From positions 36,520 to 100,519 of the IMG/VR virus record IMGVR_UViG_3300049844_000277: a stretch of 64,000 bases of DNA, one strand, 5' to 3'. Shown one piece after another: positions 9,086-62,261 of this stretch (its first letter is position 1; every line of letters begins with the position of its first letter). The notes under the pieces were generated by a model. That model was not told the origin of the DNA. It made no database searches and saw only the letters and a list, made by a program, of their open reading frames with translations. The stretch is from a virus. The position numbers and the translations under genes were made by a program.

Positions 9086-10885
9086 TTAGTAACGCCCTTC
9101 CGGACCCATCCCAAATTCAGCCCCATAAGCATAGGCGGGTACCGGATGCGTACTGTGTAAATCAGACGCAGCGCCGGTTCGTGCCCCCTGCAGAAGGGAA
9201 TCCTTTAGATATCGGTGAGCCAAGCGCGCCATCCAGTCAGGATGTAGCAGTGGATTACGTGCCATCGGACGCATCAAAAATTCTACCCGAGGTAATGTAG
9301 TGGCGACAGATACTTCCGAAATTTTATGCTCATTCAATTTCTGTATAACTGATGGTGTTAACGGAGTTCCGGCGGTGAAGTGAAGAACTTCTTTACCGAG
9401 TACACCACCCTCCGCCTGCTTCAACGGAACAGATTTACTGTGCCGTGCTGCGGCATCTCTATACGTTGAGTAAGGAATAACCTCGCCCTTTACCAACGTA
9501 GGATGCTCATCAGTATGCTCGAGAACTTTGACGTGGTTGAGGTCCGCGCGGGCAACCAACTCAAGGTGCCGCTTGTCGACATTGAGTCCTTGTCCATGAT
9601 AGATGTCGTGCAATGTGTCCACGAGGTACTGTCGTCCGACACCAAAGCCCTTGTGATGAATGAGCTCGTCTGGTTTCGGAATTCCTTCTGATAAGACATC
9701 CCCCGCCTCTACTTTCTGTCCCACATGAACTAAGATTTTTAAGTTTGGTCCGGCGTAATGTTGTAAAGCATCAACATGCACGTATGTTCCACCGTGCGGA
9801 GCTGGGATTATTTTTGTAATAGTACCTGCGTGCTCTGCTAGCGGTGCTTTATTAATGAAGGTCTGGGGGATTTCCAAAAGCTGACGGATACCAGACATCC
9901 CCTCTAACTTGGGGGATGTACCTTTGAGTAACCGCATACCGTGCTTAGCGCCGAGCGCCATTTGAGTCAACGGTTCGGAGATAGACTGGGCGGCACGGAC
10001 TCCGACGTTAACACCGATAGCGTGCGGACGTCCTCGCTCATCTAGACCCTGGCACTTACGACAGACGCCATCCTTGGTGACGCAGGTCATTGGTGAACGC
10101 ACGTACACTGTACTGACCTTTGCCTGAAGCTTAGACGCCACTTCTTTTGTAACTAAATCATTCCGATGAAATCCAGCCTGGTCTCGAGATAAATAGCGGT
10201 CAACAATATTTCCATCGGAACTATTCATTGCGAGACCGTTATCAGTTCCGCAATCGTCCTGGGTAATAACCAGCGGATACATATTGTTGGTCATCACCTT
10301 AGACATATCGCCAGGCTCTGCGATGGCCGTATAGGTTTGTACGATGTTATGTCGCGCTTCGTTTCCTGCGGCCCAATGGTCAGCAGCGGACAACCCTTCG
10401 GCGTAGGACTTACTGATTAGCCAGGGATTTATCTCCCCTTTGCTTGTCGTAGTCGCAACCGGGGACGCAATGGTTTTCATCAGCTGCGGAATATTGCCGC
10501 GCGCACCCGACAATGCCATCGAGGTCATAGAACCTGGATGCTTTTTGGTGTGCTCAAGCATCTTCTTTTGTACATCTAAAATAATCTTCTCTTTGGCGTC
10601 TCTATTGTCCGCGTTTTTAATTGCGGCGACAGCGGGCTGCATGATGCTGTCGCGTTCTTTGTACTCCGGCGTAATGTCATCCAACCCTACAGAGACACCT
10701 TCAAGCGTAGAGATGTCGTCCCCTAAGGTTTTTAGCTTAGAGACAATTTCTACGTATTCGGCAGGATCTTCCTTGGCCAAGTCCAACATTTTCTGTTGGA
10801 ACTCTTTTTTATTTAGTGTGCCCGTAATGTGATGCTTCCCGGGCAGCAGGCTATTGACCAGAAACCTACCTAACGGCTGAGCCAT
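9086..10885 (-). CDS. rpoC: DNA-directed RNA polymerase beta' subunit, C-terminal module (trigger loop / regions F-H). This is the split second half of beta'.
   Basis: N-terminus [31 protein letters not shown] aligns with E. coli beta' [54 protein letters not shown] matches the AAQSIGEPGTQLTMRTFH motif. [20 protein letters not shown] matches [20 protein letters not shown]. Confidence 0.85.
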   Translation of the reverse strand: [599 protein letters not shown]

Positions 10886-10891
10886 GGGAAT

Positions 10892-11308
10892 CTATCTCGC
10901 CCCGTATGGGTCATTAGGAGGCGGAGGTTGTTGAGGTTGAGACGGTGTCATGGCCTGCTGTATGCCCATCATAGCTAGGGGAATAGACGCTTGAATCGCC
11001 ATATCCCGCCCAAAACTTTTTAAACCTGATTTCCAACCACCTGGCTCTTGGGCTGGCGTTGCGGGGACCTCAGGTGTCTTTGGTACAGTGTCCGCAGACG
11101 TCACTGCCGGATTGGCGGTACCACCAAAAATAGGCGGCTTGCCTGCTGGCTGCTGTACCGGCGCTGCTGGCGATGTCTTCGGCGTAACAGGTTTGCCCTT
11201 CTGACCCTTCGCGAAGCGCAGCATCTGAACGGGCGCAGGCGCAGCCGTTTTCGTAAACGTCATCCACGCATCAGTAGTTCCCACAGAATAAAAGATATCG
11301 GCAATCAT
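10892..11308 (-). CDS. Pro-rich small hypothetical protein.
   Basis: ORF between the RNAP gene pieces. PQQPPPPNDP and PAAPVQQPAGKPP tracts. Confidence 0.4.
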   Translation of the reverse strand: MIADIFYSVGTTDAWMTFTKTAAPAPVQMLRFAKGQKGKPVTPKTSPAAPVQQPAGKPPIFGGTANPAVTSADTVPKTPEVPATPAQEPGGWKSGLKSFGRDMAIQASIPLAMMGIQQAMTPSQPQQPPPPNDPYGAR

Positions 11309-11664
11309 ATCGCAGCTCCGTCCCGACCAATGCCGGAGTAATCATACGTAGGCGAGCCGCCGCTCCAAGGACTTGATACTCCGCCCCATCGTACGGGGTT
11401 CCCAAAACGCTCGCGACGTTTATCACGCTCAGGGGAAATCCCCGGGTCCATGTCCGTAAGATGCTTAGCTAACCGCTCCGCGGCTACGTTCATATCCCCG
11501 TGCGGAATAGCATGCTGCATGGCATGAGCGGCGGTTCTCACGCCGAAATCTTCTTCTGCGCGAATTCTACCTTCAGCGTAAGCTAAATTCGTCATACGAA
11601 AACCTAGGCTACTCTCGCCCACTACGCAATCGATTAGGTGTAACAGCGTTCTCTTTCCAACCAA
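11305..11664 (-). CDS. Hypothetical protein (119 aa) with a faint, unproven resemblance to RNAP omega.
   Basis: Position inside the RNAP operon. The segment MTNLAYAEGRIRAEE weakly resembles the omega SKYRLTVVVAKRAQQL helix pattern. Weak evidence only. Confidence 0.35.
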   Translation of the reverse strand: MVGKRTLLHLIDCVVGESSLGFRMTNLAYAEGRIRAEEDFGVRTAAHAMQHAIPHGDMNVAAERLAKHLTDMDPGISPERDKRRERFGNPVRWGGVSSPWSGGSPTYDYSGIGRDGAAI

Positions 11665-11750
11665 CTAAAGCTTCGCGCTTTTTAACGGCATCCTTTAGTT
11701 TCTGCGCTAATTCTTCAGCGGCGATGCGCTGTCCTTCCTCGTAAGCGTAC

Positions 11751-12380
11751 TTAAGTACCGGCTCCACGGGAACCTCCTTCACAGAACATCATTCGCCGTA
11801 GGTCATCAGCATGCTGCTGGTCAGTAAGGACCATTTGCTCCAGCATGACCTTAAGCGACAAATTATCTCCGGCCATGTCTGACAGATGTCGTAACTCTTC
11901 AATCAATTGCTTCTCAGTTTGTAGAAGAGTCATGAAAATCTGGTGGAGGTCACTCATGTTCGGGATGACACCTACCTTAGGAATAGGTTCTCCGCCTAAC
12001 GCCGTAATCTTCATTGCGAGATGGTAGGCGTCCATCCGCTCTTCTTTGATGTGCTCTTTAAAGTGGTCGTAGATAACATCTCTAAAGTGCGCACGAATAC
12101 GATCGCCATAATTCATATACATGAAGATGATGGTATATTTGTAGCGCAGCAACTTATTACACTGAGCCACTACCTTATCCTGGGCAACCGCGAAGAATCC
12201 TTCCTCGGCCGATACAGCAAGAGGATGAGCACCAGCAGATGCTGTGGCAAGCGGAGGCATGGCGAACATCTCCTCCGTGTGCGGGGATGACTCCATTGTG
12301 TCCGCCATTGGACTGCTAGGAACTGGAAGACTCGAGCCACTCTCAGCCATGGAAGTACCCACTTTGTAGCGCTGCGTCAT
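11751..12380 (-). CDS. Ferritin-like (bacterioferritin/Dps-fold) four-helix-bundle protein.
   Basis: KEERMDAYHLAMKITALGGEPIP matches the EExxHAD.L.ERI..L.G.P helix-B pattern of bacterioferritin/Dps. C-terminal LEQMVLTDQQHADDL matches the ILESEEEHIDYL pattern of the last helix. Confidence 0.5.
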   Translation of the reverse strand: MTQRYKVGTSMAESGSSLPVPSSPMADTMESSPHTEEMFAMPPLATASAGAHPLAVSAEEGFFAVAQDKVVAQCNKLLRYKYTIIFMYMNYGDRIRAHFRDVIYDHFKEHIKEERMDAYHLAMKITALGGEPIPKVGVIPNMSDLHQIFMTLLQTEKQLIEELRHLSDMAGDNLSLKVMLEQMVLTDQQHADDLRRMMFCEGGSRGAGT

Positions 12381-15300
12381 GTACCCACCTCAACTCGAGT
12401 ATTGAGCGTAATCTCCCCGCGCTTATAGGCGGCGAGAGCTTCTTCTCTATTTTTGAAATGGCGTACTTTATCGTTCGCGGAACTCTCGGCTTTGGACGCC
12501 AAATGTACCCCAAGCATAGCTTCCATTCGTGGCGCTACCATCAAGCTATCTTTTTCACGGTCCGAGAATAGAAGGTTTGAGAGAGTCATCCCCTTCACTT
12601 CATCTATCGCGGGCTTCAGTACGGGAACGTGGATTTGGAATGTGTCCCAAACTACGAGGCCGTCGTTGACCGCGAAAATTTGTGTGTCAGGAACAATAAG
12701 GTCATAGACGGTTTCTTTTCTTAATACCTCGACCGACTCTACTAGATCCCAGGTAATTCCAACGTTCTCAACGATCCTTGCCCAAGCATCGACATCTGGT
12801 GTTTTGGCCGTCCGGAAAAAATGCAACATACGCCGAGCGTTTTGCCTCGTAACGTATGGAGCCTCTTTTCGTTTAGATCGTAGCGTAGCCAATGATGCGC
12901 AGAACGAACTATCTTCCGCGCACGGACCAGTACGGCTGGAGGCGAGGGTCATTAGATTTTTAGGAACAGGAACAATATCCACCTGATCCACAAGTTCATC
13001 AGCTTCTAGGAGGTTCAAAGCCTCCAAAGATTTAGAGTTGTTCCAAATTCCTCTACGAAGCCAGGACACGTTACGCTGGAGGTCTACGGTACTAATAGGT
13101 ATCGTATAAGCTACAGCTTTTTGGAGACGTCCCTCCTTCGGATATGCTTCGCTCACAGAACACCGGACGCCGATAGTTTGTAACAAAAAACGTAATGAAG
13201 CTGCTAACGCAGCAGACGACGTGTGAAGGGCGGCCATCACTTGAAGTTTTGCCTTACCGGCGCTGACAGTGAGTGTACCGTCACCGTTCAACATTCCGAT
13301 GAGCACACCCCACCGAGCCTCCTCAGACCAGTCCCCAAACGCTGGCACGCGTTTCGAGAGACAAGAGCGTCCGGGTACCCTCTCATCTAAGTAACAAGTC
13401 TTGAACAGCTCAACGCACTTCTGCGCACCACTAAAGTGGTCTTTGATACTTTGTCCTGTTATTCCGTTAGATGCGTCGTGTACCTCACGATACGTATTTC
13501 GCTTAATGAGCTTACCCTCAAACGCATTCACCGCGGCAGCAAAGCGTTCACGGTGCACGTCACTAACTTTCGTGTACCCGAAATAATGATCGGTTTCACC
13601 CAGTAAGAAACCGTCGGACAAGAATGCGCCGACCATCCATCCAAACTCAAAATCCCCCTGTGACCCCGTTAACGGTAAATGCCGCACAACCGGAGCTAAC
13701 TTTCCAACGGAATCCGAGGGCGCTGTTGCTTCGATCTGACCTGTTTCATGGTTATAAATACACAACGACTCATTCGTCGACGCCGTAACGCTTAAACCAC
13801 GACGCATTTCTACTTTCGCCACTTCGCATCCGTCTTCAATCGTAAGTCCTGTCACCGGGGACATTACTGATTTACTTGCGGAGTGGTCGTAAGAAAGAAC
13901 GCGAAAACCCTCCGGAACGGCGTAACTGCGAGCACCATTCTTGTCGATACTATAGGGCTCCTCAGCGTGTGGAATCTCTTGAAGCTCCGCTTCCACCAGC
14001 GCCTGTACCGCTGAGGTCCAACAAACACGAGTCTCTGCCGCGAATTTCATGGCTGTCTCCTTGGCTTCATCGCCAAGGAGCGCTTTACAAGCCGCACCTT
14101 CTGCTGTCAACACAACTTTCGTCGAACCCAAGAAACAGTTTCCATCGTAATCCGCATTGAAGCCAAGCTCTGCGAACGGATTTACGCGAATCGTCTTCCC
14201 CGCAACAGGGACGGCGTGAGCGCCAATAAACCCGTACCGGTGGAGAGTCGGAGCGCGATTCACCATCACCGGACGCTCCTTAATCTCCGCCATCAACGCG
14301 TCGTGCGCTGCCGGATGTTTCTTTTCCAACATCTCTTTCGCTTGAATGGCTCCGAAGCCGCGACGGATAAGGCGTGAGATAATAAACTTCCCGTACATGC
14401 CCCAAAGCATGTCTATCGGAATACCTATCTCATCCATGCTCAGAGAGCCGTCTGGAGCTATGGTTCCGCGGCCGGAGATATCTTGCTGCCGCTTCATTAT
14501 TCGTTTTTGGAAAAAGGAACTGTTCCCCGATACGGAAGGTTTACCGTTACGGCGAACAACTACAGTACCATTAGGGACTGTCACACAATACACGGTTCCT
14601 TTGTACGGGTACGCCTCGGTAAAAGAGCCCGACTCAATGGTGACATCAGAAAACCCCCGCACAGAAAAAAGATAATGCGGGAGATGGTGATCCTTAACTG
14701 GCGGACAAATTCCTCTAAAAATAACTTGGTAACCTATTTTTGCAGCGAGATGCTGTAGGTCATCAATTAATTGTAAACTAGCGGTACCGGCGTGAGCACT
14801 CAGCGGTTTACGCCGATAATGGGTTTTCGGGTTTTTCACGTTCTTCGCTAACGAAGGGTGAAGGGTTCCATCTCCACGCAGATATCCGCGCAATAATCCC
14901 TCTAACATAGCAGAAGGCCACGCTAAAATATCTGAAGATAAGTGTTTACTCTCGCACCCACGCCCGCAATGATGCGTTAACCAATCCGCCAGTGAGCGTA
15001 ACCTAATAGTCCACCAGATTACCTGGTATCCATCTTTACGCGTATATGTTTTGCGTACAAAGGGAATATCCAATTTTTTAAAGCACAAATCCACCGCGCG
15101 AACGTGTGGAGACGTTGCGGCTTGACACAAAGAAACCTGGGTTCCTGTTGTGGAAATCCAACCTTCCGCAATCCACCAACCTACAAACTCCGCAAAGGCC
15201 AAAGGATCTGGAGTAAATGTTCCTACTAAATTAGCCGTACGCCGTTTTTTGTTATCCGTAGAAACTTCACACGTATCTCCCGCGAAAACCAACTCCGGAA

Positions 15301-18300
15301 AAGTACCCTCCCACTCCTCAGCGCTAACCATTACCCTCCGGCGGTCCGTGCCTATAAAAGTATCCGCGCGTACCTTTTCCCACGGAGTCCAGACATAGAG
15401 CGCCTTACCGTTACTTACGCGCTTACGGCGATACGAGACTACATGTTCGTGGTTAGGTGTTACACATAAATCAAGTTCACGGCTGCGCGTATGTATCAGA
15501 TCTCCGTCGAACGGCATGGATACTAACGCGGTCGGCTTCTGCCATTCAAATTCCCGGGTGTCTAAGTTAACCGTAGCGACACGAGTTTTTCCGGTGTACT
15601 TAGAAAAACGAACCCACCCTTTTTCTGTAAGAATATCTGTTTGATCATCGTAACATTTTGGCGTAGTTTTCCCGGTAATATGCTCGAGAAATCCCTTTAC
15701 GTTTCTCTTTTGGAGTTTGGGGTTATCTGATTCGTGCGTACCAATCACGGCGCCTACCGCGTGAAACAAGTTCTGACGAAGCTTCGCTTGTTCATCCGGC
15801 GGAAGAATTGGAGATTCAATTTGCTTCCGTAATGACTGATTATGAAGGATAGCGCTTTGGTACAGGTAGTTCGAATCACCTACTACGAGCTCAGAGCCAC
15901 TCTTCCCCGGAAGAATGGGTCGCATTATTGGAGGAAGAACAGGCAACTTGGATAGGACGTACGCATCTCCCGGCTTGAGCTCCTGCCGATTCAGCGCCTC
16001 AAGGAACTTCAACTGCTTTACTGCGTCATCTAGCTTCGTACCGGAGAGCGACTTAATAGAGTTACGGAGCTCCGCGATACGCGCCTTAACGTCGATAGCG
16101 TTAAGCTTTTTCTTTACCGCAGCGCCACCATTCGTATGGTGATACTGGTCAAAATCTTTCGCGGTCATCCCCAGCAAGCGACGGGCAGGGTCGGCGAATA
16201 CAGGATTTACAACGGGCTCGGCGAGCTCAATGTGGCTCCACCGTGTTCCAGTGGTACCGCCAGTAACCGCGGGGTCAAACAATCCCCCACGTTCAGCGGC
16301 CAAATCTTTAGCGCGTACTAACTTCTCATTTTGTACTTCGCCAGATGACATCCGTAGAATGTCTTTATCGGTAAGCGGAGAGAGCGTGCTGATACTTCCA
16401 CGCGAATCAACTTTGACCCCTGCGCCATGCAGCATACCGATGAACTTGTCATAAACGAACGACGACTTGAGTGGAGGGAGAGGCAGTCCCAGCTGAATCG
16501 CCCGCCAGAACTCATCGTTCTTCTGGCTCTTAATAGCCGCCGTCTCTCGAAGCACGTTCCGCGCATTATGTGCAACGAGGGCATTGAACTCCATTTTACC
16601 GACGGCTTTCGCGCCTTCGTCACCGCCCTTAATTGGCTGCTGATTAACGTCGTACGCACCCGTACCGCGCGCGGCGTAGTTGGTCTCCGTGGTCTTAAAC
16701 AAGCGAAGTACGTATTGCGGCCCAACCAGGATTCCCGGAATCTTTTTACCCGACACAGGGTCTATCAGCGTTTCCTTGTCCTTGACCTTGTGCTCCTTCA
16801 GTAAATCCTTTGCCCACTGTACGTTGTCACGCCCTGAAAAGTTTTCAACGACAATAGGTTTACCGATTTTCTTGGCAACCTTAGCGACACACGTCTCTAG
16901 TATTTGCGACGGATTGATTCGGGAAATTACGCCAGCCGAGGTATACAAAACCTCAATCGGCTTACCCGTCTCATCTTGAAGCATCTTGTGATCGGGAACA
17001 ATAAGGGAAACAACGCCCTTGTTTCCGTGGCGTCCTGTGTTTCCGCACCATACTGATTTACCATTTCTGCGAACATACAAAACATGTCCAGGAACAGTTA
17101 CACAGTAAACTGGTGATTTGTACGAATCTACAAAACATTCCACCTGACCCTTCTGTCGTTTGATATGTCCATGATTCACAGTAGGTGTTAATTTCGAATT
17201 AATAATTCGTACCTGCCAATAATCACGACACCAAAAATCTTTACCTTTGATTGTTTGATACCCTTCAGCTTTCGCTAACGACACATTAGCAGCTTTACCA
17301 ATATGTAGTGCGAGACGCTGAACATCATCCGCCAAACGTTTGGATGTTGTTTTGTAGCATATCGGTTGGCCATTTTTAGTATGACCGTCACCCCACATCA
17401 ACCAGTTGAATAGCGTCTCTTGATCCGCTCGAGACCAAGCGAACACCTCAAGCGGGATAAATTTCTCGTAAGACTTACCGAACTGTTTAAAGTACTGCCA
17501 ATATTGCTTGGAATGAATACGAACCTTATCACCTGTGTCCGTGAATAAAATCCCTTCCTCACGAAGAAACTTTTCTAACTGTTTTCGATTTGGCTGATTA
17601 ATTTGCGTAATCTCTATGCCGTAAGTACCGGATTCTTCAATCGTAATGAGATTACCTTCAGATAAAAACGCACCGAGAAGAGCGGCTAAGGTTTTAGTCG
17701 GAAGCGCTTTATCATCTAAAACACGTAAACCCCGGCCCCCTTGTCCCGCGCGCACAGTTATCGAGTCAAATACAAACGACTCAGGAGAGTGCCCCACCCA
17801 AATCCCATCCTTCTTATAACTGACCCTTTTTCCTGCGATTTCATACGCCGGTAAAAGTTGGAAAGATTTCTCGTTGCGCGGTTGAACGTACATATGATGT
17901 CCGTCGGTCACAAACAAATCTACCTGTTGTGATTCGATGCGGTACATCCGTCCGCCTTCTGGATACGAATGAATTGCGTCGGGCTCTAGGTACTCGATAT
18001 TTTCGCCATTCTGTAACGTACAAATCTTATCCGTAATACGTACATCCGCTATCGGTTTCCACCCTTCCCACGTGAGAACCTCAGTCTCTGCATCATAACA
18101 GAGCTTGTCTCCGACGCGCATCGGCTCACGGGTCTTAACCGTTACAACGACACGCTTGTCCGTCACATAAACATCCATGACTTCACCTTCGAAGTCGTGG
18201 TCCCACGTACGAACAAGTTCCCGATACGGCGTAACTAACGTCTTCTTTAGGTTACCGAGAAGCGCATCAGACGCCGAAAGTTTACCTCGTGTGACTCCAG

Positions 18301-31259: not shown

Positions 31260-32093
31260 CTACTCAAGAAAAACATCTTGAGACGTTTCTACTTGATTTG
31301 CCAATAAGTATGTCTTGATTTGCGCGAGAGTGTCCTTCTTAATCTGCCGGACACGTTCAGAAGATAAATCTACTCTTCTGGAAATCTGCCGGAGATTTTT
31401 AGGCTCTTCTCTCGCGCCGTAATACGCCAGGACAATATATTTATCTCGTTCGCGTAGAGATAAGTTATCTAACGCACGACGTAACATAGTAAGGCCGTAC
31501 GTATTCACTAAATCACGTTCTAAGCTCACATCGCAGTGTCCAGCTACGTCAATAGCGCCAACAGCATCCAACGTAACGTGCGGCTGCTCTACATCAACAC
31601 CGCCACCACTCTTACGTTGCGCTCTTAACGCTTTCTGCTTATGGGCAGGGACACGAATAATTCCTTGACTATCTAACTCCTCTAGTATTTTCTCGCGAAC
31701 CCACCACGCAGCGTATGTAAGAAACTTAGTATTGCGTGAGGTATCAAAACGATCCGCCGCGACTAGAAGTCCTACGTTACCGGCGGATATCAGTGACGTC
31801 AATAGTTCGTTGTCGAACTTTGGTCCCTTAGTGCGATAAGCATATTCTTTCGCTACTTTCACAACAAAGCGAAGGGCTCCCGAAATAAGTCGATCACGCG
31901 CTTTAAAGTTTCGCGGAGTATTACACCTAGGACATCGGGTAGCTGAAGATCCCAAGCTATACGAAGACCTGCACGCAGAACAAGTGCGGTAGGCCTTTAC
32001 TAGATCGCGTTCCTCTCGTTGAGGAATGAATTCATTACCACGTAAATCAGCGAAATAAGCCGAGACTACACGGTCATTGTCCATTGGGTTCAT
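31260..32093 (-). CDS. Sigma-70-family RNA polymerase sigma factor with an N-terminal zinc-ribbon insertion. Antisense to the surrounding plus-strand module.
   Basis: - Region 2.1/2.2: ARDRLISGALRFVVKVAKEY.
- Region 2.3/2.4: FLTYAAWWVREKILEEL.
- Region 4.2 HTH: ISRRVDLSSERVRQIKKDTLAQIK.
- Insert: CSACRSSYSLGSSATRCPRCNTP. Confidence 0.8.
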   Translation of the reverse strand: MNPMDNDRVVSAYFADLRGNEFIPQREERDLVKAYRTCSACRSSYSLGSSATRCPRCNTPRNFKARDRLISGALRFVVKVAKEYAYRTKGPKFDNELLTSLISAGNVGLLVAADRFDTSRNTKFLTYAAWWVREKILEELDSQGIIRVPAHKQKALRAQRKSGGGVDVEQPHVTLDAVGAIDVAGHCDVSLERDLVNTYGLTMLRRALDNLSLRERDKYIVLAYYGAREEPKNLRQISRRVDLSSERVRQIKKDTLAQIKTYLLANQVETSQDVFLE

Positions 32094-34143: not shown

Positions 34144-37100
34144 GTGCCCACAACCCGAGGAGCTCTCATGGAGAAGCCCGCAGAAATCTGCAGCGGATGT
34201 CCTCGAGAAATCGAGACAGAGACCCATCCCTACGGTTATGTTGAATCGTGGATTGATTCAAACGCCGAACTCATCATCATAGCGGAAGCTCCTGTCTGCG
34301 ATCGCCACGGTAACGTTCCTAGCTCTTTCGACGATGACAGCGGTAAAATCATTCGAACCGCCGTATCCGAGCTACGTAACTTACCTTCGCACAGTAAGCT
34401 AGCGGTCTCGTATACGTACGCAGTACTCTGTACAAGCAACCAGGGCGACAAAGACCCCGAAAAAGCCGTACTGCAACGGTGCCGTACGCTGCTCCAAGCT
34501 GACTTACGTCGCGCAAACAAGAACGCCGTCCTGCTGGTAATGGGTATGTCTGCCCTTCGCGCACTAGAAATAAAAGCCGCGAAGTTGAAGGACATGCAGG
34601 GGCGATTACTCCAAAAGCAGAAAATTGGAGAAGGTGATGACGCTCCGATATTCGATGTCGTCGTAACCGTCTCGACAAAACAGTTGTTCGCGATGCCGGG
34701 AATCTACACGACGTTCGTAGCGGACCTGCGACGAGCTGCGGACGCTGCGAGCGCAGGTGGATTAACACACGTTACCCCACTCGAAAAACTAACCGAAAAA
34801 TACGTAATCCCGAAAACAATCGAAGAAGTACGCCAAATCTGTCGCGAAATACTGAATTATCAAGAAGGTAAAGTATCTGCAGATAACTGGCCTATCTCTG
34901 TAGACACCGAGACAAACACCAAGTTTCCACACCGAGAAAACTTGAAAGTATTGGCGGTGTCCTTCGCATGGGCGGAGGGTAAAGCTACTGCAATTCCATT
35001 AGAGCACCCCACTACACCCTACGCGTACCAAGACGCGATACCGTACGTACGCGAAGTCTTAGCGAGCAAGAAGCCGAAGTTCCTTCATAATGCTAAGTTC
35101 GACCTTAAAGTCTTCATGAAAGCGGGCTGGCCGATTAACGGGTTCGCTTGGGATAGCATGCTAGGGGAACATGCTCTCGAAGAAGATAAAAAGGGACAGT
35201 ACGGATTAAAGCAGTTGACCCGTACTTTCTTCCCGGAATTCGCGACATACGCCGACTCTCTTCAAGAAATGCTCACGCACGAAGAGGGCGACTCGCAGCT
35301 CGACAACCTGAGGAAAGCGCCAAAAGCTTCAACTTCGAAAGATGGGGGATTTGAAAGTATCCCACTTCCCACGCTATTGCTTTATGCGGCAGTCGATGCA
35401 GATATGACACGGCGGCTAGTGTTACTGCAGGAAAAAAGAATTACCGACGAGCAGAACAGAGTAATCGTAGAAACGAATATAACGAAGAGAGAGCAGGCGC
35501 TGGCGATTTCGGCGAGGAAGAAAATACGGCTGAGAATTGCGCCGCTACATAGTGAGACGGAGATGTTGAAGAAGTACATGGTGCTCTACCCCGTCCCAGA
35601 ACTCTGTTCCGCTGATAAGCCGGTAAGACAACTAGTACTGAACAACGTATTCCCCGTTACCCCAGCTCTCGCGAGAATGGAGTTTAAGGGCATACGGATA
35701 GACAGACCGTACCTAACTACGTTGCGTGAAGCGTTGGGAAAAGTCGTCACAGAAACCGCTGCAGAGCTACAGGATATGGCGGGCAGAGAGATAACTCTCA
35801 ATAGTCCGGCAGAGATAGCTGAAATCCTGTTCAACAGCGGGTTTATACATCCAACAACTCACGCCCCCACGACTTATCCCCTCACAGGCATCGGTAAGAC
35901 AAAAACGGGACAGATACAAACCACCGAGAAAGTGATGCAGTACTTGGTGGCGAAGTATCAGTGCCCCTTTGCAGCTAAAAAACTAATCTACGCCAAGGCA
36001 TATAAAGCGAAAAATACGTTCTGTCAGAATGTGTGGGATCTCTCGGAGCTCGACGGGTATCTACACACGAACTACAACCAGCACGGCACAAATTCGGGTA
36101 GACTGTCCTGTGTCGCGGGAGAAACCGTACTAGATACTAATTACGGAAAAATCGAGATACAGAATCTCGATCTGGAGAAGATGCCGGGGATTACCATCCA
36201 GACCCACGAACTCCGCGAACAACCGATTCTACGTAAAATAGAAAAAGGCATTGAAGAAATGTTCGAGGTCGAACTCGAAGACGGGCGCACCATCACCGTG
36301 ACTAAAAAACATCGCTTCTTGACGCCGACGGGGTGGAAACGACTCGAGGAACTGTCAGAAAATGCCGAAATACTCTGCGCCGCCTCCGTGGGTAGTGGAC
36401 CAAATATGCGACTCGTTACAACCCGGATAAAAAGCATACGTCCCGTAGGTCCTAAGAAAGTCTGGGACCTCACAGTAGCGGTCGATCACTCTTACATCGC
36501 CCACGGATTTGTTAACAAAAATTCCAACGATGAAAACATGCAAAACATCCCCAAGAAATTGGCGGGTGTTAACATTAAGAAAGTGTTCCTCCCGGACGAT
36601 GATTCGTATGTCTTCGTCAACGCTGATGCGAAGGGTGCCGAAGTACGAATCCTAACCGCCTACTGCCGAGACCAAGCGCTCATACAATCGCTCAACGCGG
36701 GGCAGGACACGCATTGTTTCATCGCGTCCAAGATTGTTGAAATCGTACGTCAGAGTCCTGGTGCAACGGCGGTTCTCGGAAGCATGAATCTAAGCGATGA
36801 GTATCCTCTGACGTACGAAGACTTCGCGGCTAGAGACAAGCTAAAAGAAACCAATAGTAAGTACGGGGCGATGCTCGACAAATTCAGAACCGCTGTCAAA
36901 CGCGTAGTGTTCGGTATTCTGTACGGCGCCGGTCCTCAGAAAATTGCGGAAACTATTGGTATCAGTCTAGAGCAAGCACAACAGCTCATTCACACTCTGT
37001 TCGCTTTGTTTCCGTCCATCAAGACGTACATGGCGCAGACAAAGTGGGAACTACAACAATTTAATTTAGTCGAAACGTTCTTCGGTAGACGCCGTAGATT

Positions 37101-37527
37101 TAGTGTATCGGGAGCGCCGAAGTATCAAATAGGGAGAGCTGAACGTCAGACAGTTAATTTTAAAATCCAAAGCACAAGCTCTGATATCGTAATGGGACGA
37201 TTACTAGCAATCGAAGAACCTCTCAAAGATTTGGGAGGTAGACTTCTATTGACAGTGCACGACAGCCTTGGGTTTCAAATCAAGAAAAAATATATCCGAC
37301 AGCTACCTGATTTCATTTATACGTATTTGGAGAAGGGTGCAGCAGACGCCCATCCATGGCTCCCAGTCGCATTTAAATGGGACTACGAAGTTGGGTCATC
37401 ATACGGCGAACTCAAATCACTGGAATCCTACCTTGCCAACACGAAAATAGAGGAATACTCGAACGATGCCTACGTCGCCGAGGCTTTCACAGAAGAAGAC
37501 GCAAGAACCTCCCTCTCCGAACCCTGA
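34144..37527 (+). CDS. polA: Family A DNA polymerase (Pol I-like) with a 3'-5' exonuclease domain, interrupted by a mini-intein.
   Basis: - Exo I: ISVDTETN.
- Exo III: YAAVDADMTRRL.
- Pre-motif A GRLS//SNDENMQNIP matches GRLSSSDPNLQNIP.
- Motif A: FVNADAKGAEVRIL.
- Motif B: RTAVKRVVFGILYGAG.
- Motif C: LLTVHDS. Confidence 0.9.
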   Translation: MPTTRGALMEKPAEICSGCPREIETETHPYGYVESWIDSNAELIIIAEAPVCDRHGNVPSSFDDDSGKIIRTAVSELRNLPSHSKLAVSYTYAVLCTSNQGDKDPEKAVLQRCRTLLQADLRRANKNAVLLVMGMSALRALEIKAAKLKDMQGRLLQKQKIGEGDDAPIFDVVVTVSTKQLFAMPGIYTTFVADLRRAADAASAGGLTHVTPLEKLTEKYVIPKTIEEVRQICREILNYQEGKVSADNWPISVDTETNTKFPHRENLKVLAVSFAWAEGKATAIPLEHPTTPYAYQDAIPYVREVLASKKPKFLHNAKFDLKVFMKAGWPINGFAWDSMLGEHALEEDKKGQYGLKQLTRTFFPEFATYADSLQEMLTHEEGDSQLDNLRKAPKASTSKDGGFESIPLPTLLLYAAVDADMTRRLVLLQEKRITDEQNRVIVETNITKREQALAISARKKIRLRIAPLHSETEMLKKYMVLYPVPELCSADKPVRQLVLNNVFPVTPALARMEFKGIRIDRPYLTTLREALGKVVTETAAELQDMAGREITLNSPAEIAEILFNSGFIHPTTHAPTTYPLTGIGKTKTGQIQTTEKVMQYLVAKYQCPFAAKKLIYAKAYKAKNTFCQNVWDLSELDGYLHTNYNQHGTNSGRLSCVAGETVLDTNYGKIEIQNLDLEKMPGITIQTHELREQPILRKIEKGIEEMFEVELEDGRTITVTKKHRFLTPTGWKRLEELSENAEILCAASVGSGPNMRLVTTRIKSIRPVGPKKVWDLTVAVDHSYIAHGFVNKNSNDENMQNIPKKLAGVNIKKVFLPDDDSYVFVNADAKGAEVRILTAYCRDQALIQSLNAGQDTHCFIASKIVEIVRQSPGATAVLGSMNLSDEYPLTYEDFAARDKLKETNSKYGAMLDKFRTAVKRVVFGILYGAGPQKIAETIGISLEQAQQLIHTLFALFPSIKTYMAQTKWELQQFNLVETFFGRRRRFSVSGAPKYQIGRAERQTVNFKIQSTSSDIVMGRLLAIEEPLKDLGGRLLLTVHDSLGFQIKKKYIRQLPDFIYTYLEKGAADAHPWLPVAFKWDYEVGSSYGELKSLESYLANTKIEEYSNDAYVAEAFTEEDARTSLSEP
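36109..36522 (+). mobile_element. Intein 5: mini-intein (138 aa, no endonuclease domain) in the DNA polymerase.
   Basis: - Starts CVAGETVLDTNYGKIEI.
- Ends VWDLTVAVDHSYIAHGFVNKN with +1 Ser.
- Boundaries codon-verified (tgt at 36109 = Cys; aat at 36520-36522 = Asn). Confidence 0.8.
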
Positions 37528-43223: not shown

Positions 43224-44239
43224 TGCGCCCTCAACTGAAGCTTCAAATCCAGAGGAAGCGTATCGACTACAACAGCAAGCTTGGATTGGTCAACTTCACC
43301 CCCGGGTGCTACCTCATCTCGAAGTTCCTTGCCGCCTAAATCTTCCCAGAAAGAAGCGGGAAGCGCTGCTATCTTCTTCATCGGAACAAACGTACCACCC
43401 AAATCAACAGAATGGGCCGCCTGCTTTTCCGTATTGAACACCGTCCTCACGGCATCCGGAAGATTTCGGTCGTAGTGCTTATCTAAACCTGACTGCTCGT
43501 CGAGCTCCGCGAGAACCGACGCAAACTTCATCAAGCCTTTTCGATCAAAAATTTCTACAGGCTTCTGCTTCAAGCCGTCCGCCAAAGTTTGATACGCTAG
43601 CTTAAATACCTTCGCATCTTCGGGAAGCTTGTTTGCACGGGCCTCAACCCAATCCCGCGCGGTCTTCGTATTCGAGACTACGAGTCCCGCGAGTTGTAGG
43701 ACCTCAGGGCGGAGCTCGACGTTAAGCTCATCTGCTCGCTTCACCAACTCCGCGCAGGCCGAGACACGGTGCTCCATATCCAACTTGGGCAAGGACTCTA
43801 CCAGTTCTTCTTGTGCCCGCTTACACTGCTCAGGATTCGTCACACGAAACAGCCTAAGAGTTGGTAAAAGATATTGATTATCCTCCGAAGCTACCTTCGC
43901 CGTCTCCTCTTGGAAGATAGATTCAGGAACGGCGTATACCTCTAACGCCTGCGCGATATTCGCGCGTACCTCCTCAGGAAGCTCCGAAGCTACCTTTGAG
44001 TACGCGTAGCTCAGCATGGCGTGCTCAGGTGTATGAAGAGGAAATTTTCGCTCCGACGGCCAAGCAAAGGCCGAATCGGGAAGCGCATCAGCTTCACTCG
44101 GCTCTATCGTCGCCTGCTTAACAAACTCCTCCATAGCAGGCATACGGTTGATCTGCCGGTACAAGGTACCAAATGCGGTATCGGAAAATTGGTCAATCGC
44201 TGACATTGTTGACCTCTGCAAGAGAAGACGTCGCGTCAA
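43214..44239 (-). CDS. Hypothetical protein (341 aa).
   Basis: ORF overlapping the previous one by 10 nt, suggesting coupling. Confidence 0.5.
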   Translation of the reverse strand: MTRRLLLQRSTMSAIDQFSDTAFGTLYRQINRMPAMEEFVKQATIEPSEADALPDSAFAWPSERKFPLHTPEHAMLSYAYSKVASELPEEVRANIAQALEVYAVPESIFQEETAKVASEDNQYLLPTLRLFRVTNPEQCKRAQEELVESLPKLDMEHRVSACAELVKRADELNVELRPEVLQLAGLVVSNTKTARDWVEARANKLPEDAKVFKLAYQTLADGLKQKPVEIFDRKGLMKFASVLAELDEQSGLDKHYDRNLPDAVRTVFNTEKQAAHSVDLGGTFVPMKKIAALPASFWEDLGGKELRDEVAPGGEVDQSKLAVVVDTLPLDLKLQLRAHCR

Positions 44240-44251
44240 GAGTATAGGCGG

Positions 44252-45946
44252 ATGTTGGGAAGTGAGCCAGCATACTTCTTAAAGGATATCCAAAAAATGT
44301 CAAACCAGCCTGAACAAGAAAATGCACTCCAGAAATCGATGGTTTTCTGGGTGTCCCGCCGAGGAGCCTCTAACTACTGGGCCTCGGTCGTGAATGGAAT
44401 GAATAAGAGGTTCTCTAACGACGAAGGAACAATGTCGGTGCAGCTCACAGAGAACTGGAAATATATCCTCACCTGCCATCTTCCAGCGTTCGAATCGTGG
44501 TCGCCGAGAATGCGACTACTTGCTCTCGTTCACGAATGCGCTCACGTAGTTCTTCAGCACATTCCCCGGCTGTTCAAGATGTTGGCCAATTGTACAGACC
44601 CGTTCGTACGCACAGCCATCACATCGACGTTCAACTTCGCAGCAGACTTCGCGGCGAATGACGCAATCGTTCGACTTGAAGACGGATTCACAGAAGCGCA
44701 CAAAGCCTTCATGCACGTCAGTCCAGACGGAAAGCCGATTCCTCTCTCCAAAGAAGAAGAGGAGAAACTTCCCGGTGAATGGCCATTTCTTTTGCCAGAA
44801 GAATTTGGACTACCTCGTGGAAAGACAATGGAAGAGTACTTCGTGCTCATCCTCAAGGACCTCCCGAAGTTCAAACAACACGTCGAGGAGATGATGAAAA
44901 ACCTCGAACGTATTCTGAGTGAAATGGGGGAAGACTCCGAAGGAGAAGGAGAGGGAGAATCAGAGGATGGAAGTGGCGGCCAGGGAAAATCTCCCTCCCG
45001 TCGAAACATTCCACCTAAAGGGATTCCCGGCATTCCCGACGAAATCGTCAAGCACGCTCTCAACTCACCAGAGACCTTCGAGATGTTGCAGAAGGCCTTT
45101 GATAAGATTTCCAGTAAAGCACACAAGCAGTGGAACGAAAAAGCAAAGGAGATGACACCTGAGGAAGCAATCTCTGCGGGCAATAAGCTCAAGAAGCACG
45201 CGCAGACGATGGTCAGGGCCGCGAATGACCGCGTAAAGAGAGACCGCGGATTCATGCCCGGCGGAGTCCAGAAGATAATTGACGCGCTGATGGAGCCGGA
45301 CCAGATTCCCTGGGATTCAATTCTTCGAGACATCATTCACGGAGCAATAAGCGCTCGCGTTCAAGAGGAGATGGTCTCTCCGAATCTGTCTCTCATCAAC
45401 GAAGACTACTTGGAGCCGTGGCCTGGGCAAACATTGGAATTTGGCTTCAACATCACCTGGATGACCGATACCTCTGGTTCGATGGGTGATAGTGAATACG
45501 CGCGGGCGTGTAACTGCATGAACTCGCTGCTTGCGCAGAACAAGTTCGTATCCGTCACATACTGCGAGTGTGACGCCATCATGCAAAAGGAGGTGAAAGT
45601 CACAAACATCGAACCGCTCACAGAGGAATACTTGAGCGAGCTCCGTACACGCCGAGGATATGGAGGAACTGTCTATACGCCGTTCTTCAAGCGCGTAATG
45701 GGTGCGGATGAACCTCGGGATTGGATTGATGGCGCACCACGACTAGAGGATGCGCATCCCAAACCGGACTTAATGGTAATCTGCACGGATGGTGGCGTTC
45801 GTCTCATGGGAGAATGCTTCCCGAAGTATCGGCCAGAATGTCCCATCATCTGGTTGTTGATGCCAGGCTGCCATGCTACGACCGGAATGGATGATGTCGC
45901 GCCGGACCGGTTGATTCAGATGTATAAAATGCGGGAGGAGGAGTAG
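44252..45946 (+). CDS. Putative metallopeptidase-like (HExxH) + von Willebrand factor A domain protein. Likely partner of the MoxR ATPase.
   Basis: LALVHECAHVVLQH (HExxH). Acidic linker EDSEGEGEGESEDGSGG. MIDAS-like FNITWMTDTSGSMGD (DxSxS). This architecture commonly pairs with MoxR AAA+ proteins. Confidence 0.65.
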   Translation: MLGSEPAYFLKDIQKMSNQPEQENALQKSMVFWVSRRGASNYWASVVNGMNKRFSNDEGTMSVQLTENWKYILTCHLPAFESWSPRMRLLALVHECAHVVLQHIPRLFKMLANCTDPFVRTAITSTFNFAADFAANDAIVRLEDGFTEAHKAFMHVSPDGKPIPLSKEEEEKLPGEWPFLLPEEFGLPRGKTMEEYFVLILKDLPKFKQHVEEMMKNLERILSEMGEDSEGEGEGESEDGSGGQGKSPSRRNIPPKGIPGIPDEIVKHALNSPETFEMLQKAFDKISSKAHKQWNEKAKEMTPEEAISAGNKLKKHAQTMVRAANDRVKRDRGFMPGGVQKIIDALMEPDQIPWDSILRDIIHGAISARVQEEMVSPNLSLINEDYLEPWPGQTLEFGFNITWMTDTSGSMGDSEYARACNCMNSLLAQNKFVSVTYCECDAIMQKEVKVTNIEPLTEEYLSELRTRRGYGGTVYTPFFKRVMGADEPRDWIDGAPRLEDAHPKPDLMVICTDGGVRLMGECFPKYRPECPIIWLLMPGCHATTGMDDVAPDRLIQMYKMREEE

Positions 45947-45958
45947 AATAGGCGCACT

Positions 45959-46264
45959 ATGCCAACCGTCACTCCTCCAATAACTGATGACTCGGATTGC
46001 AGGGGCTACAAAGTACGATTCAACGAATCTTGGGAAGGGTCTATCTACAAAGCGAACCGTCATTGCTGGATGGCTACGCTAACCAAGAAACAGAAGAATC
46101 GCGCGCTTGTCATTCGTCCCGGAAAAAATTTTCCAAATCCTACGGAAGCGAAGAAATGGTGTGAAGAACAATTTGAACTAGAAGAAAAATCAGCGGTCCC
46201 ATACGAACAAAAACTTCGAGACGTACTCGTCGCAATCCGTAAACAAATAGAAGAAACCCTATAA
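45959..46264 (+). CDS. Hypothetical protein (101 aa).
   Basis: ORF. Confidence 0.5.
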   Translation: MPTVTPPITDDSDCRGYKVRFNESWEGSIYKANRHCWMATLTKKQKNRALVIRPGKNFPNPTEAKKWCEEQFELEEKSAVPYEQKLRDVLVAIRKQIEETL

Positions 46265-46265
46265 C

Positions 46266-46652: not shown

Positions 46653-46683
46653 CAGTCCTCCTCCCCCTCCCCTTCCCCCTCTA

Positions 46684-46721: not shown

Positions 46722-46728
46722 AGGTACC

Positions 46729-47331
46729 ATGGACCTCTACTGTCTTCGTGTTCGTAGGAACATCGCTGGACGTAAATTTCCCTTCGATAGAGTGTATCTC
46801 GCGAAATACGGGGATCACGTTATATTCAAAAGATTATTCAGGTATGCCTTCATCCTTCCCGTTGAAGGCGTACTAAAGGAAACGCTGTACTGTCTCCCCA
46901 TTGAAGACAGCATGACGCACGCATTCGACAGAGTAGAAACGCCTGAGAAAATTCCAGATGTAGAGTGGAAGACGCTCATCGACTCGACGGACTGGGTACT
47001 CGCGGTACCGATTCTATCGAAGTACGTGACCGCTAACATGCCGAGATATATTATTGCCAAGTCCACGGTGCCCCGAAGAGACAAGAAAAACTCTAACGCG
47101 TGCGCAAACCCGTTTCCAAACATGACGTACTTGCAGACACCCGAGCAAAACATTCGGCCAATATGTGTCGCATGTCCGAACTTTATCCAGCATCAGAACG
47201 GTCACTGCGAACTTGGAGATAAGCTCTGCTACGACTCTCTTTCCCTGGGAATCCGAAATCACTTTGAAGAAGGCATGATGGTTCCTCCTGCCCCGGAAAA
47301 AGAACAAGTGACTGAGGAGGGGAACGACTAA
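46729..47331 (+). CDS. Hypothetical protein (200 aa), first gene of the RT operon. The track ORF starts at 46630, but the upstream part crosses the terminator and is non-coding.
   Basis: First ATG after the terminator, in frame. The stop overlaps the RT start (TAATG). Cys-rich C-terminus: CVACPNFIQHQNGHCELGDKLC. Confidence 0.5.
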   Translation: MDLYCLRVRRNIAGRKFPFDRVYLAKYGDHVIFKRLFRYAFILPVEGVLKETLYCLPIEDSMTHAFDRVETPEKIPDVEWKTLIDSTDWVLAVPILSKYVTANMPRYIIAKSTVPRRDKKNSNACANPFPNMTYLQTPEQNIRPICVACPNFIQHQNGHCELGDKLCYDSLSLGIRNHFEEGMMVPPAPEKEQVTEEGND

Positions 47332-48467
47332 TGCCTGTCTACAAACAAAATTTCCTTGAGCGAATTGAAGTACGCGAGCCACTCATCAAAGGCGTACCCC
47401 TTATCGTCGATGACTGGAGTCTGGCATTCCAGCTAGGTTTTACGGGTAAGACCGCGTGGTACATCATCCATGAACGCGCCAGTATGTACCGGGAGTTCAT
47501 GCTGAAAAAGAAGTCTGGGGGTCTCCGTAGAACGTTTGATCCAACTAACCTCCTGCGCATTTTCCAGAAACAACTACGCGCACGCATTCTGTTCCCGCTC
47601 GTATCTCGCCTAGGTCCGCACGTAGCCGCGTATCAGGTCGGTAAGAGCACGCTTGATGCGGCAAACTGGCACCTGCGCGAGTGTAAAATCTGCGACGACA
47701 CGACCCGTCCCGGCACGAGTCCTGTGAAACATGAGTGTCCTCGACGGGGTGTGAAGTTCAAAATGGATTTGAAGGATTTCTTTCTATCGACTCGTCGGTC
47801 CTGGATACGACAGTATTTCCACGAAGTCGTCGGATACAATCACTACGTCTCGTCGATTCTGGGGCACCTACTGACGACGAGTTATAAAGATGAGCGGAGA
47901 AAAGACAGGAACGGCGTTCCGCCAGGCGCATTAACAGCTGGCGATATTTGTAATCTCATCTGTGATTGGAAGATAGATCAACCGCTTATGGCGGCACTAC
48001 CCACAGGCTGGAAGTACACACGGTACGCCGATGACTTGTATTTCTCGTACGACGCACCCCTTCCATCAAAAGAAGTAAACAAGATAATCCGACTAGCCTC
48101 GGACACCATCACCGGCTCCGGTTACCGGGTAAATTGGAAAAAGCTCCAAGTGCAACACTGGAGCCGGCCCCAGCGAGTACTAGGTATCAATATCAACAGA
48201 AAACTAAACATCCCTGCGACTGAGTACCGTCGAATGCACATGATTCTGTATAAAGCAAAGAAGCATGGATTCCAGGCGCAACTTACGTGGGCAAAGAAAG
48301 CCGATGTTCCGGAACTTCACGCCTGGATAACCGGCAAACTGAATTACTACGCGCGATTCGCACCAGATAAAACCAATAAACTACAACGGCTTTATCAAGA
48401 AGCGAAGGACGCGAATCCAAGCGAAGAGGCCGCGGTGTTCAACTTTGGAACCGGTGCAAACCCATGA
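47331..48467 (+). CDS. Reverse transcriptase (retron/DGR/group-II-like clade) with a Cys/His-rich insertion.
   Basis: - Motif 1: KKKSGGLRRTFDP.
- Motif 2a: AAYQVGKSTLDAA.
- Motif A: VKFKMDLKDFFLS.
- Motif B: VPPGALTAGDICNLI.
- Motif C: YTRYADDLYFSY.
- Motif 6: VLGINI.
- Thumb: GKLNYYARF.
- Insertion: CKICDDTTRPGTSPVKHECP. Confidence 0.85.
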   Translation: MPVYKQNFLERIEVREPLIKGVPLIVDDWSLAFQLGFTGKTAWYIIHERASMYREFMLKKKSGGLRRTFDPTNLLRIFQKQLRARILFPLVSRLGPHVAAYQVGKSTLDAANWHLRECKICDDTTRPGTSPVKHECPRRGVKFKMDLKDFFLSTRRSWIRQYFHEVVGYNHYVSSILGHLLTTSYKDERRKDRNGVPPGALTAGDICNLICDWKIDQPLMAALPTGWKYTRYADDLYFSYDAPLPSKEVNKIIRLASDTITGSGYRVNWKKLQVQHWSRPQRVLGININRKLNIPATEYRRMHMILYKAKKHGFQAQLTWAKKADVPELHAWITGKLNYYARFAPDKTNKLQRLYQEAKDANPSEEAAVFNFGTGANP

Positions 48468-62122: not shown

Positions 62123-62183
62123 TAGTCTCGACTTCACTAAACCGTCTGCTTCACCAGCGCGGTAGACCTTGGGGTTTAGTGAA

Positions 62184-62256
62184 CTCCCCGAGTAGGACTC
62201 GAACCTACGACCTAGCGATTAACAGTCGCTCGCTCCACCAGCTGAGCTATCGGGGA
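62184..62256 (-). tRNA. tRNA-Asn (anticodon GUU), 73 nt, no encoded CCA.
   Basis: Manual fold:
- Acceptor: TCCCCGA/TCGGGGA.
- D arm: GCTC-AGCTGGTG-GAGC.
- Anticodon arm: AGCGA-CTGTTAA-TCGCT.
- Variable loop: AGGTC.
- T arm: GTAGG-TTCGAGT-CCTAC.
- Discriminator: G. Confidence 0.8.
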
Positions 62257-62261
62257 AGATG

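Follow-up and report, generated by a model that had tools for sequence, protein, structure and literature searches.

A phage-borne, bacterial-type RNA polymerase core, probably made as two polypeptides, with three inteins and an embedded pyrophosphatase domain

In this study, we analysed 64,000 nucleotides of a virus genome (IMG/VR record IMGVR_UViG_3300049844_000277, positions 36,520 to 100,519; the whole of this stretch is referred to here as the window), and in particular two genes on its minus strand that encode counterparts of bacterial RNA polymerase (RNAP) subunits, beta and beta'. The larger gene (12377..20887), identified by Pfam, translation and phmmer, starts with ATG and specifies a precursor of 2836 amino acids (aa) in which beta (aa 1-~1497) is fused to the N-terminal half of beta' (aa ~1498-2836, equivalent to E. 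coli beta' ~15-550). The smaller gene (9086..10885), identified by Pfam and phmmer and likewise with an ATG start, specifies the 599-aa C-terminal half of beta'. Two features of the larger product were absent from an earlier note on this DNA: three inteins (354 + 378 + 498 aa, 1230 aa in total), whose removal from the 2836-aa precursor leaves a spliced fusion of 1606 aa, and an inorganic pyrophosphatase (InPase) domain. It is because of these insertions, and not of the polymerase itself, that the open reading frame (ORF) is so long. We consider it very probable, on the sequence evidence set out below, that a phage-borne multisubunit RNAP of bacterial type has its catalytic core encoded here, and that this RNAP is made as two polypeptides, is matured by protein splicing, bears an InPase domain and likely has its own sigma factor.

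Both RNAP halves are real and stand well above chance. The Pfam families found in the 2836-aa ORF are Rpb2_3, Rpb2_6 (in two stretches), Rpb1_1, Rpb1_2, InPase, LAGLIDADG_3 and Intein_splicing, and those in the 599-aa ORF are Rpb1_5 and, weakly, Rpb1_4. After removal of the inteins, aa 88-523 and 739-1117 of the fusion match bacterial beta (phmmer against the PDB, best E 1.3e-60) and aa 1226-1604 match beta' ~174-550 (E 1e-45). Altogether, the fusion covers beta ~97-1034 and beta' 30-63, 100-137 and 174-550, the sub-alignments at 30-63 and 100-116 being weak singly and colinear with the rest. By phmmer, the 599-aa ORF covers beta' from E. coli ~590 at least as far as T. thermophilus residue 1395 (of 1524), and a reading of its motifs suggests that its last 130 aa continue this coverage to the end of beta'. 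In addition, the exteins are colinear with the intein-free gp206 (1525 aa) of Salmonella phage Arash and with metagenomic homologues of ~1600 aa. The Pfam and phmmer alignments agree with the earlier note, which had recognised colinear beta and beta' motifs in the large ORF; it had proposed alignment to RNAP families as a check, and by this means the two ORFs are found to cover jointly a colinear beta/beta' core that includes the bridge helix and the trigger loop. The motifs that the note had listed, from a GTFIINGxER-like region to NADFDGD, are present (GRHTFILDGNEY, a motif named there, is aa 99-110), but the last of them is encoded as NADYDGN (aa 2244-2250) and is interrupted by an intein.

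The C-terminus of beta (…FVYDKFIGMLHGAGVKVDSRG) is joined directly to the N-terminus of beta' (…LSPLTDKDILRMSSGEV…) near aa 1498. The loop GDK..RHGNKG of the beta double-psi barrel, with its two catalytic lysines, is contiguous once the first intein is removed, and the beta' triad as encoded reads NADYDG-N followed by the third intein, in place of the three aspartates of NADFDGD. The Cys4 zinc ribbon of beta' (~36 residues, E. coli ~64-99) is replaced by ~4 residues without cysteines, at GGLFDPAVTGG-TTGT-RWSHIELAEP (16214..16288, minus strand, from the alignment to beta'), where ILRMSSGEV..GLFDPAVTG matches beta' 30-63 and TRWSHIELAEPVVNPVF matches beta' 100-116; the deletion suspected from the first reading of the sequence is thus borne out. 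The clamp helices are kept, LPVLPPIMRP...DSNYLYQ matching beta' 174-280. As the same note had described, the rest of beta' lies in a separate 599-aa gene a few genes downstream, in which both of the motifs that it quoted are present; this protein contains the F-loop/bridge helix, the second Cys cluster, a trigger loop (AAQSISEP) that lacks an SI3-type insertion, region H and the C-terminus. In the alignment to cyanobacterial RpoC2 (8gzg_Z; query 40-317 against 31-342), residue 1 of that protein falls at residue ~10 of the 599-aa ORF, which puts the split no more than ~10 residues from the cyanobacterial RpoC1/RpoC2 boundary, where it had been suspected to lie. This likeness to cyanobacteria is best regarded as a functional analogy, with no evidence of common descent. 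Since the first ORF ends at beta' ~550-575 and the second begins at ~590, no segment of beta' is missing between the halves. Polypeptide 1 would consist of beta continued by the N-terminal ~540 residues of beta', minus the zinc ribbon, and would need three protein-splicing events to mature; polypeptide 2 (599 aa) would supply the bridge helix, the trigger loop and the C-terminal clamp part of beta'.

The fusion with a separate beta' C-half is standard for a large and essentially undescribed family. A word-indexed search returned 355 homologues, of which the typical member is a beta-beta'N fusion of ~1600 aa, most with an InPase domain and on contigs of up to ~197 kb, and IMG/VR has, by a pattern scan, more than 521 loci with the fusion architecture. 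What had been called an unusual arrangement is therefore the rule among these phages, hundreds of metagenomic contigs and the cultured Arash and D181 alike. The cultured relatives, Salmonella phage Arash (OQ632216) and Vibrio phages D181, D148 and D69, are colinear with the window at about 33-39% identity; near-identical DNA was not found among cultured phages. Like the window, the cultured relatives have a two-piece design (in Arash, gp206 for beta-beta'N and gp216, of 606 aa, for beta'C), the same short form at the beta' zinc ribbon, and portal and structural genes around their RNAP genes. Unlike the window, Arash has neither inteins nor an InPase domain, and nine genes on both strands lie between its halves. 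D181 differs in that the fusion is cut into ORFs of 515 and 1007 aa (L002 7650..13164), and the ~930-bp gap between them holds an annotated free-standing homing-endonuclease gene. The records of Arash and the Vibrio phages label the RNAP proteins only 'beta subunit' or 'hypothetical', and we found no paper on the RNAPs of Arash or of D181, D148 and D69.

The boundaries of the three inteins were set by reading the translation against intein-free Arash gp206, and their coordinates, all on the minus strand, were verified by translation. Intein 1 (aa 930-1283, 354 aa; 17039..18100), with a LAGLIDADG endonuclease, lies in beta at GDKL|TGRHGNKG. Intein 2 (aa 1745-2122, 378 aa; 14522..15655), with LAGLIDADG motifs, interrupts switch-2 of beta' at GKTTPK|SSFFQKRIMKRQQDISGRG, where intein-free homologues read GKTTPKSSFFQ. 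Intein 3 (aa 2251-2748, 498 aa; 12644..14137), also with LAGLIDADG and of a kind termed type A below, lies at NADYDG-N|CFLGS...VVWD|TFQIHVP. Each carries two LAGLIDADG motifs with the acidic residues intact. Inteins 1 and 2 have the hallmarks of class 1, namely Cys1, a block B of TDGH and TPNH, respectively, and C-termini of GN|T and GN|S, with Gly instead of His as the penultimate residue in both. Intein 3 has an Intein_splicing match in the Pfam scan, and its Cys1 (C2251) and T2749 do not vary among the 8 members that were aligned. Since each intein interrupts an indispensable motif (the GDK..RHGNKG loop, switch-2 and the Mg2+ triad), the precursor should be inactive, and the spliced product of 1606 aa would be the enzyme subunit. 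For RNAP inteins at buried catalytic sites, splicing has to precede assembly (PMC1635734).

The inteins are best understood as mobile homing elements that are polymorphic among close relatives. The site of intein 1 is occupied in ~50 of 120 homologues, and mapping with multi-domain hmmsearch coordinates revealed recurrent intein sites in the family at HMM columns ~400, 933, ~975, ~1395 and ~1523, three of which are used in the window. Among relatives, the homologues P0004 and P0008 (81-82% identity) have no intein, P0003 has one, and P0001 and P0002 have two; P0010 (2825 aa) has three, as the window does, and representatives reach 3363 aa. The guanine-plus-cytosine (GC) content of intein 1 (0.435) is low beside that of inteins 2 and 3 (0.48 and 0.50) and of the exteins (0.51), which suggests that intein 1 was acquired more recently and, together with the polymorphism among close relatives, is consistent with ongoing homing. 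Inteins also occur elsewhere in the window. The portal gene (22363..25374, minus strand) is interrupted by a Hint + LAGLIDADG intein of ~385 aa, its homologues in the related loci L004 and L005 being intein-free at 566-576 aa, and the family-A DNA polymerase (34144..37527, plus strand, 1127 aa) has an Intein_splicing match at aa 678-793, so that at least five inteins lie in three essential genes of the window.

The InPase domain (aa 585-716, ~130 aa; 18740..19135, minus strand), a type I inorganic pyrophosphatase with an OB-fold, is inserted between conserved regions E and F of beta. It matches Pfam PF18823 at E 1.6e-32 (112.6 bits against a cutoff of 26.8), and its PDB matches are the C-terminal domain of the phage portal gp19 (9b41_L, 3e-13, the best) and the H. 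pylori pyrophosphatase 1ygz (0.024). Eleven positions (G608, Y629, G630, P633, D639, E641, D644, Y646, D669, E670 and K672) are at least 95% conserved in 50 InPase domains from 48 proteins, and the signature YGxIP...DDGExxD...DEDK fits the pattern YGxIP / DGDxxD / DxxK and aligns to the DGDPVD motif of 1ygz. The homologous loop of beta (window aa ~577-727) is, depending on the lineage, empty or occupied by one InPase, two InPase or a GNAT acetyltransferase domain (variants were seen in P0006, P0038, P0097, P0111, P0115, P0030, P0054 and P0070), and it appears to be a hot spot for accessory enzyme domains. In agreement with the match to 9b41_L, fusions of this domain to portal proteins have been described, and pyrophosphate (PPi) clearance has been proposed for the family (PMC5512222). 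Neither that paper nor a survey of jumbo phages (PMC7824862) describes an InPase embedded in beta, and further literature searches found nothing.

The phage origin of the window, which the earlier note had also taken, is supported by its tailed-phage genes, including those for the portal, TerL, PolA, an SNF2 helicase, PD-(D/E)XK nucleases, PrimPol, VapE, endonuclease VII and a BRO-N protein; the portal is 30-33% identical to Arash gp204 and the D181 portals. The sigma-70-family gene reported to accompany the RNAP genes is present as described (31260..32093, minus strand): its 277-aa product contains regions 2 and 4 (Sigma70_r2 4e-9, r4 4e-9; PHROG 351 1e-27), and the gene is syntenic in L004 and L005. 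The phage sigma70-family protein would be the likeliest specificity factor of the phage RNAP; its canonical docking site, the clamp-helix region of beta', is retained.

At the catalytic metal site, intein-free alleles read DxDGD in 132 of 132 cases (79 among the first 121 sequences and 53 further ones from IMG/VR). In the window, a codon reading gives Asn (Asn2250, AAC, 14138..14140, minus strand) at the third catalytic Asp position of NADFDGD, which is also the -1 residue of intein 3. Three intein types were defined at this site among the first 121 sequences: type A, to which the window belongs, with the N-junction DG-N|CF.G(S/T) and the C-junction VVW-D|T; type B, with DG-D|(S/C)xD(S/C) and IV(F/Y)-D|T; and type C, with DG-D| followed by a variable non-nucleophile, and ILS-N|T. 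Type A is atypical, with VTASTN(E/D)S as block B (TNES in the window, without His), Trp or Tyr as the penultimate and Asp as the last residue; it lacks the usual His in blocks B, F and G, and shows neither the block B His nor the C-terminal (His-)Asn of ordinary inteins. A word-indexed search with intein 3 alone gave 2 proteins, and an exhaustive search gave 495 cluster representatives, 120 of them at E<1e-30. Among the best 150 of the 495, on which all junction counts are based, 135 of 138 C-junctions read D|T or D|S; at the N-junction, 79 representatives have N|C, 9 have D|S and 1 has D|Q, while 61 lack DxDG near the predicted junction. RNAP exteins are detectable in 126 of the 150, 71 of these being beta + beta'N fusions. 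At least 79 type-A clusters (at 50% identity) thus pair Asn at -1 with Asp as the last residue, without a single reversion of Asn(-1). The metagenomic protein P0122 (806 aa) belongs to a more distant lineage and consists of the N-half of beta' alone; besides a mini-intein in switch-2, it has a type-A intein that lacks an endonuclease and shows the same junctions, DFDGN|C...VYD|T. No type-A intein was found in 50,697 phage records. As identity among type-A inteins falls from 72 to 44%, that of their exteins falls from 76 to 41%; the two diverge in step, so that the N|C state is ancient. The only tRNA in the window is a tRNA-Asn (GTT; 62183..62257, minus strand), which is probably unrelated to the AAC codon of Asn(-1).

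Several points weigh against reading the locus as the core of a working phage RNAP. Canonical splicing of intein 3 would leave a DxDGN site (DYDGN in the window), and substitution of the third Asp in two-barrel polymerases is expected to cripple catalysis. The search for alpha and omega homologues that the earlier note had proposed found no Pfam match (RNA_pol_A/L, Rpb6) among the 46 ORFs scanned in the window, which spans 64 kb of a probable ~180-kb genome. The window is a Logan assembly contig (SRR35532809, 65,971 bp), and a search through P0269 for a longer contig of this phage gave that 66-kb contig again and a 1-kb fragment. The sigma70-family protein could equally redirect the host RNAP, early transcription probably still needs the host RNAP, and the RNAP genes of Arash lie among structural genes and are not annotated as virion proteins. 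That the gene has lost its function and is decaying under a load of selfish elements, as three inteins in one gene and a catalytic Asp encoded as Asn might suggest, is nevertheless very improbable, since the 8.5-kb ORF is intact with all other catalytic motifs conserved, its exteins are 76-82% identical to intein-free relatives, the splice-junction residues and endonuclease motifs are conserved, and the N|C state is kept across deep divergence with conserved exteins. Asn(-1) is kept without reversion throughout type A, evidently because the intein needs it, and Asp is kept throughout the intein-free alleles, evidently because the polymerase needs it. This pattern can be reconciled in two ways: the enzyme tolerates Asn, or Asn is turned back into Asp by some uncharacterised reaction. 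It is quite possible, if short of probable, that intein 3 splices canonically and that the mature enzyme works as DxDGN, Asn(-1) being needed for efficient, non-abortive splicing. By standard class-1 chemistry, N and T would be ligated; Cys1, Thr+1 and the terminal Asp do not vary, and the requirement of the intein for Asn is what the lack of reversion argues for. Inteins ending in Asp can reportedly splice, a result ascribed to Amitai et al. in JBC in 2004. Mg2+ can, in addition, be ligated by the side-chain oxygen of Asn. Against a working DxDGN enzyme stand the Asp kept in all intein-free homologues and types B and C, which keep Asp at -1 of the same site and show that an Asp-compatible intein is attainable; to our knowledge, the Asp triad is also invariant in active two-barrel polymerases. 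The other reading, in which a splicing-coupled or post-splicing loss of the Asn(-1) amide restores DxDGD in the mature enzyme, we put forward tentatively. In one possible route, the side chain of Asn would attack the bond between Asp(last) and Thr(+1) while the intermediate is branched; in another, Asp would assist deamidation. In support of conversion, excision of 'N C ... W' gives the intein-free DYDG-DTFQ exactly, which amounts to an amide swap between the -1 and last residues; the N(-1)/D(last) pairing holds in the 79 clusters with DxDG near the predicted N-junction, spans extein divergence to ~41% and includes the mini-intein of P0122, whose beta' context differs; and the lack of the usual His in blocks B, F and G suggests altered chemistry. 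However, type B ends in Asp with Asp at -1, so that a terminal Asp alone implies no swap, and the proposal is one of inference. We know of no precedent for transfer or removal of an Asn amide in splicing, and a literature search for splicing-coupled Asn-to-Asp conversion found none. Whether there is a large, undescribed intein family, exclusive to the Mg2+ triad of phage RNAPs, whose splicing regenerates Asp from Asn is, in our estimation, doubtful to a similar degree. Two further candidates were rejected: a shifted boundary of intein 3 (N...W excised, Asp kept) as a canonical mechanism, since Asp cannot act as the +1 nucleophile (such an excision would be conceivable solely as the net result of a hypothetical non-canonical reaction), and an unspliced intein 3 that loops out with its last Asp as the ligand, which is improbable on steric grounds since the triad, by general structural knowledge, is buried.

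Two other assignments at the locus have competing explanations. The InPase domain, sitting in a surface loop of beta, most likely would hydrolyse the PPi released by nucleotide addition and so pull synthesis forward; its pyrophosphatase catalytic residues are conserved, covalent embedding in a PPi-producing enzyme offers the simplest rationale, and the domain is duplicated in tandem in P0006 and P0038. That its substrate is instead something resembling a nucleotide, for instance a host alarmone or a defence signal, is rather unlikely for the same reasons, although such substrates have been raised for phage InPase domains (PMC5512222) and the GNAT domain at the same site of beta in some relatives means that the site may be a general docking place. 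The other concerns beta' itself, which the title of the earlier note had split across four consecutive genes. Three to four small ORFs do lie between the RNAP genes, and the family of one of them, of 96 aa, is kept in 53 of 68 loci, but we find two pieces of beta' only: one half ends in beta' where the other begins (~575 to ~590), leaving nothing to fill, and none of the intervening ORFs, one of which is ferritin-like, resembles RNAP by Pfam or PHROG. With gaps that vary from 0.5 to 5.7 kb among relatives and nine genes on both strands in that of Arash, a distribution of beta' over four genes can be considered hardly credible.

The genes between the halves are, in the window, those of a ferritin-like protein (209 aa; 11751..12380, minus strand; Pfam Ferritin 4e-11), a conserved 96-aa ORF (11305..11595, minus strand), a 138-aa ORF directly upstream of the beta' C-half (10892..11308, minus strand; no Pfam or PHROG match) and a 52-aa ORF known from the gene call only. 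In 66 of 80 IMG/VR loci, the beta' C-half follows downstream on the same strand across such a gap, and the identity and number of the genes within it differ among relatives. The ferritin-like gene, which overlaps the stop of the RNAP fusion by 4 nt, is present in L004 and L005 and absent from L006 and Arash; confined to close relatives, it is variable cargo and not a part of the RNAP. The 138-aa ORF has weak similarity in L004 only. For the 96-aa ORF, which has no Pfam or PHROG match, the family profile detects an ORF in the inter-gene gap of the 53 loci mentioned above, within L010-L088, and the invariant motifs of the family are AYxEG...FGxR...RLAK...RWG...DYSGxGxDxAA. Its 29 close homologues form a shallow set, none of which carries a Pfam domain. 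An AF2 model is of low confidence (pLDDT 61, pTM 0.24), with two helices and a disordered tail, and the protein is predicted to be largely disordered; it may be an RNAP accessory protein, not a fragment of beta'. At a distance from the RNAP genes, the window also has a reverse-transcriptase gene (RVT_1, 2e-14; 47331..48467, plus strand), around which no template/variable direct repeats like those of a diversity-generating retroelement were found in 44000-52500.

Altogether, the window points to a compact phage transcription enzyme of two polypeptides, without a zinc ribbon, with a cyanobacterial-type split and possibly without alpha and omega, from an enzyme family that is widespread (more than 500 IMG/VR loci) and resembles bacterial RNAP far more closely than do the phiKZ-type enzymes. 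Maturation by three inteins would tie polymerase activity to splicing, a possible switch for timing or conditions during infection, and the embedded pyrophosphatase would be a direct natural test of whether PPi removal limits transcription. The rule that Asn replaces Asp beside type-A inteins means either a working two-barrel polymerase with DxDGN or an unknown splicing chemistry that regenerates Asp. If the latter were true, it would be a new chemistry of protein splicing, a post-translational 'editing' of a catalytic residue, and would make polymerase activity strictly dependent on excision of the intein.

Of the known systems, the RNAPs of the multisubunit-RNAP-encoding Caudovirales (mReC) are also encoded by uncultivated tailed phages of ~100-300 kb and are homologous to cellular beta/beta', with an NADFDG motif (PMC7481178). 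Their genes encode ~1365-1377 + ~1005-1010 aa, or ~1010 + ~905-930 aa, compared with 1606 + 599 aa in the window, and the paper describing them mentions a fusion only for the crAssphage RNAP, and neither inteins nor a pyrophosphatase (PMC7481178). None of the JGI sample and contig identifiers that we checked from relatives of the window is among the mReC contig entries. The cyanobacterial and plastid beta', divided into RpoC1 (gamma) and RpoC2, shares the split point to within ~10 residues. In cyanobacteria, however, RpoC1 is not fused to beta, its gene lies next to that of RpoC2, and the trigger loop of RpoC2 contains a very large insertion, whereas the C-half in the window has only 599 aa and lies 1.5 kb from the fusion gene. 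The RpoB-RpoC fusions of Helicobacter and Wolbachia join beta and beta' head-to-tail with essentially no linker, as in the window, but they are cellular, have a full-length beta' with its zinc ribbon and contain no inteins or pyrophosphatase. The phiKZ/AR9-type RNAPs are, like that of the window, two-barrel phage enzymes with non-cellular splits and fusions; they have no alpha or omega, which the window enzyme possibly lacks as well, and one of them has an HD phosphohydrolase fused to the C-terminus of beta; they differ in being made of 4-5 very divergent pieces and in not using sigma70 (PMC7824862). The window enzyme is fused rather than fragmented and much closer to bacterial RNAP (E 1e-60). 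Its inteins resemble those of RNAP second-largest subunits in occupying the most conserved, buried catalytic sites (PMC1635734). The nearest precedent for intein 3 is the intein of PolD DP2, which lies in the homologous Mg2+ catalytic loop, upstream of the acidic residues (KRN|C...Q|CDGDED) and with a native Asn(-1) (PMC4996933, PMC8175363); intein 3 of the window, by contrast, follows the third metal ligand, and the ligand itself is changed to Asn.

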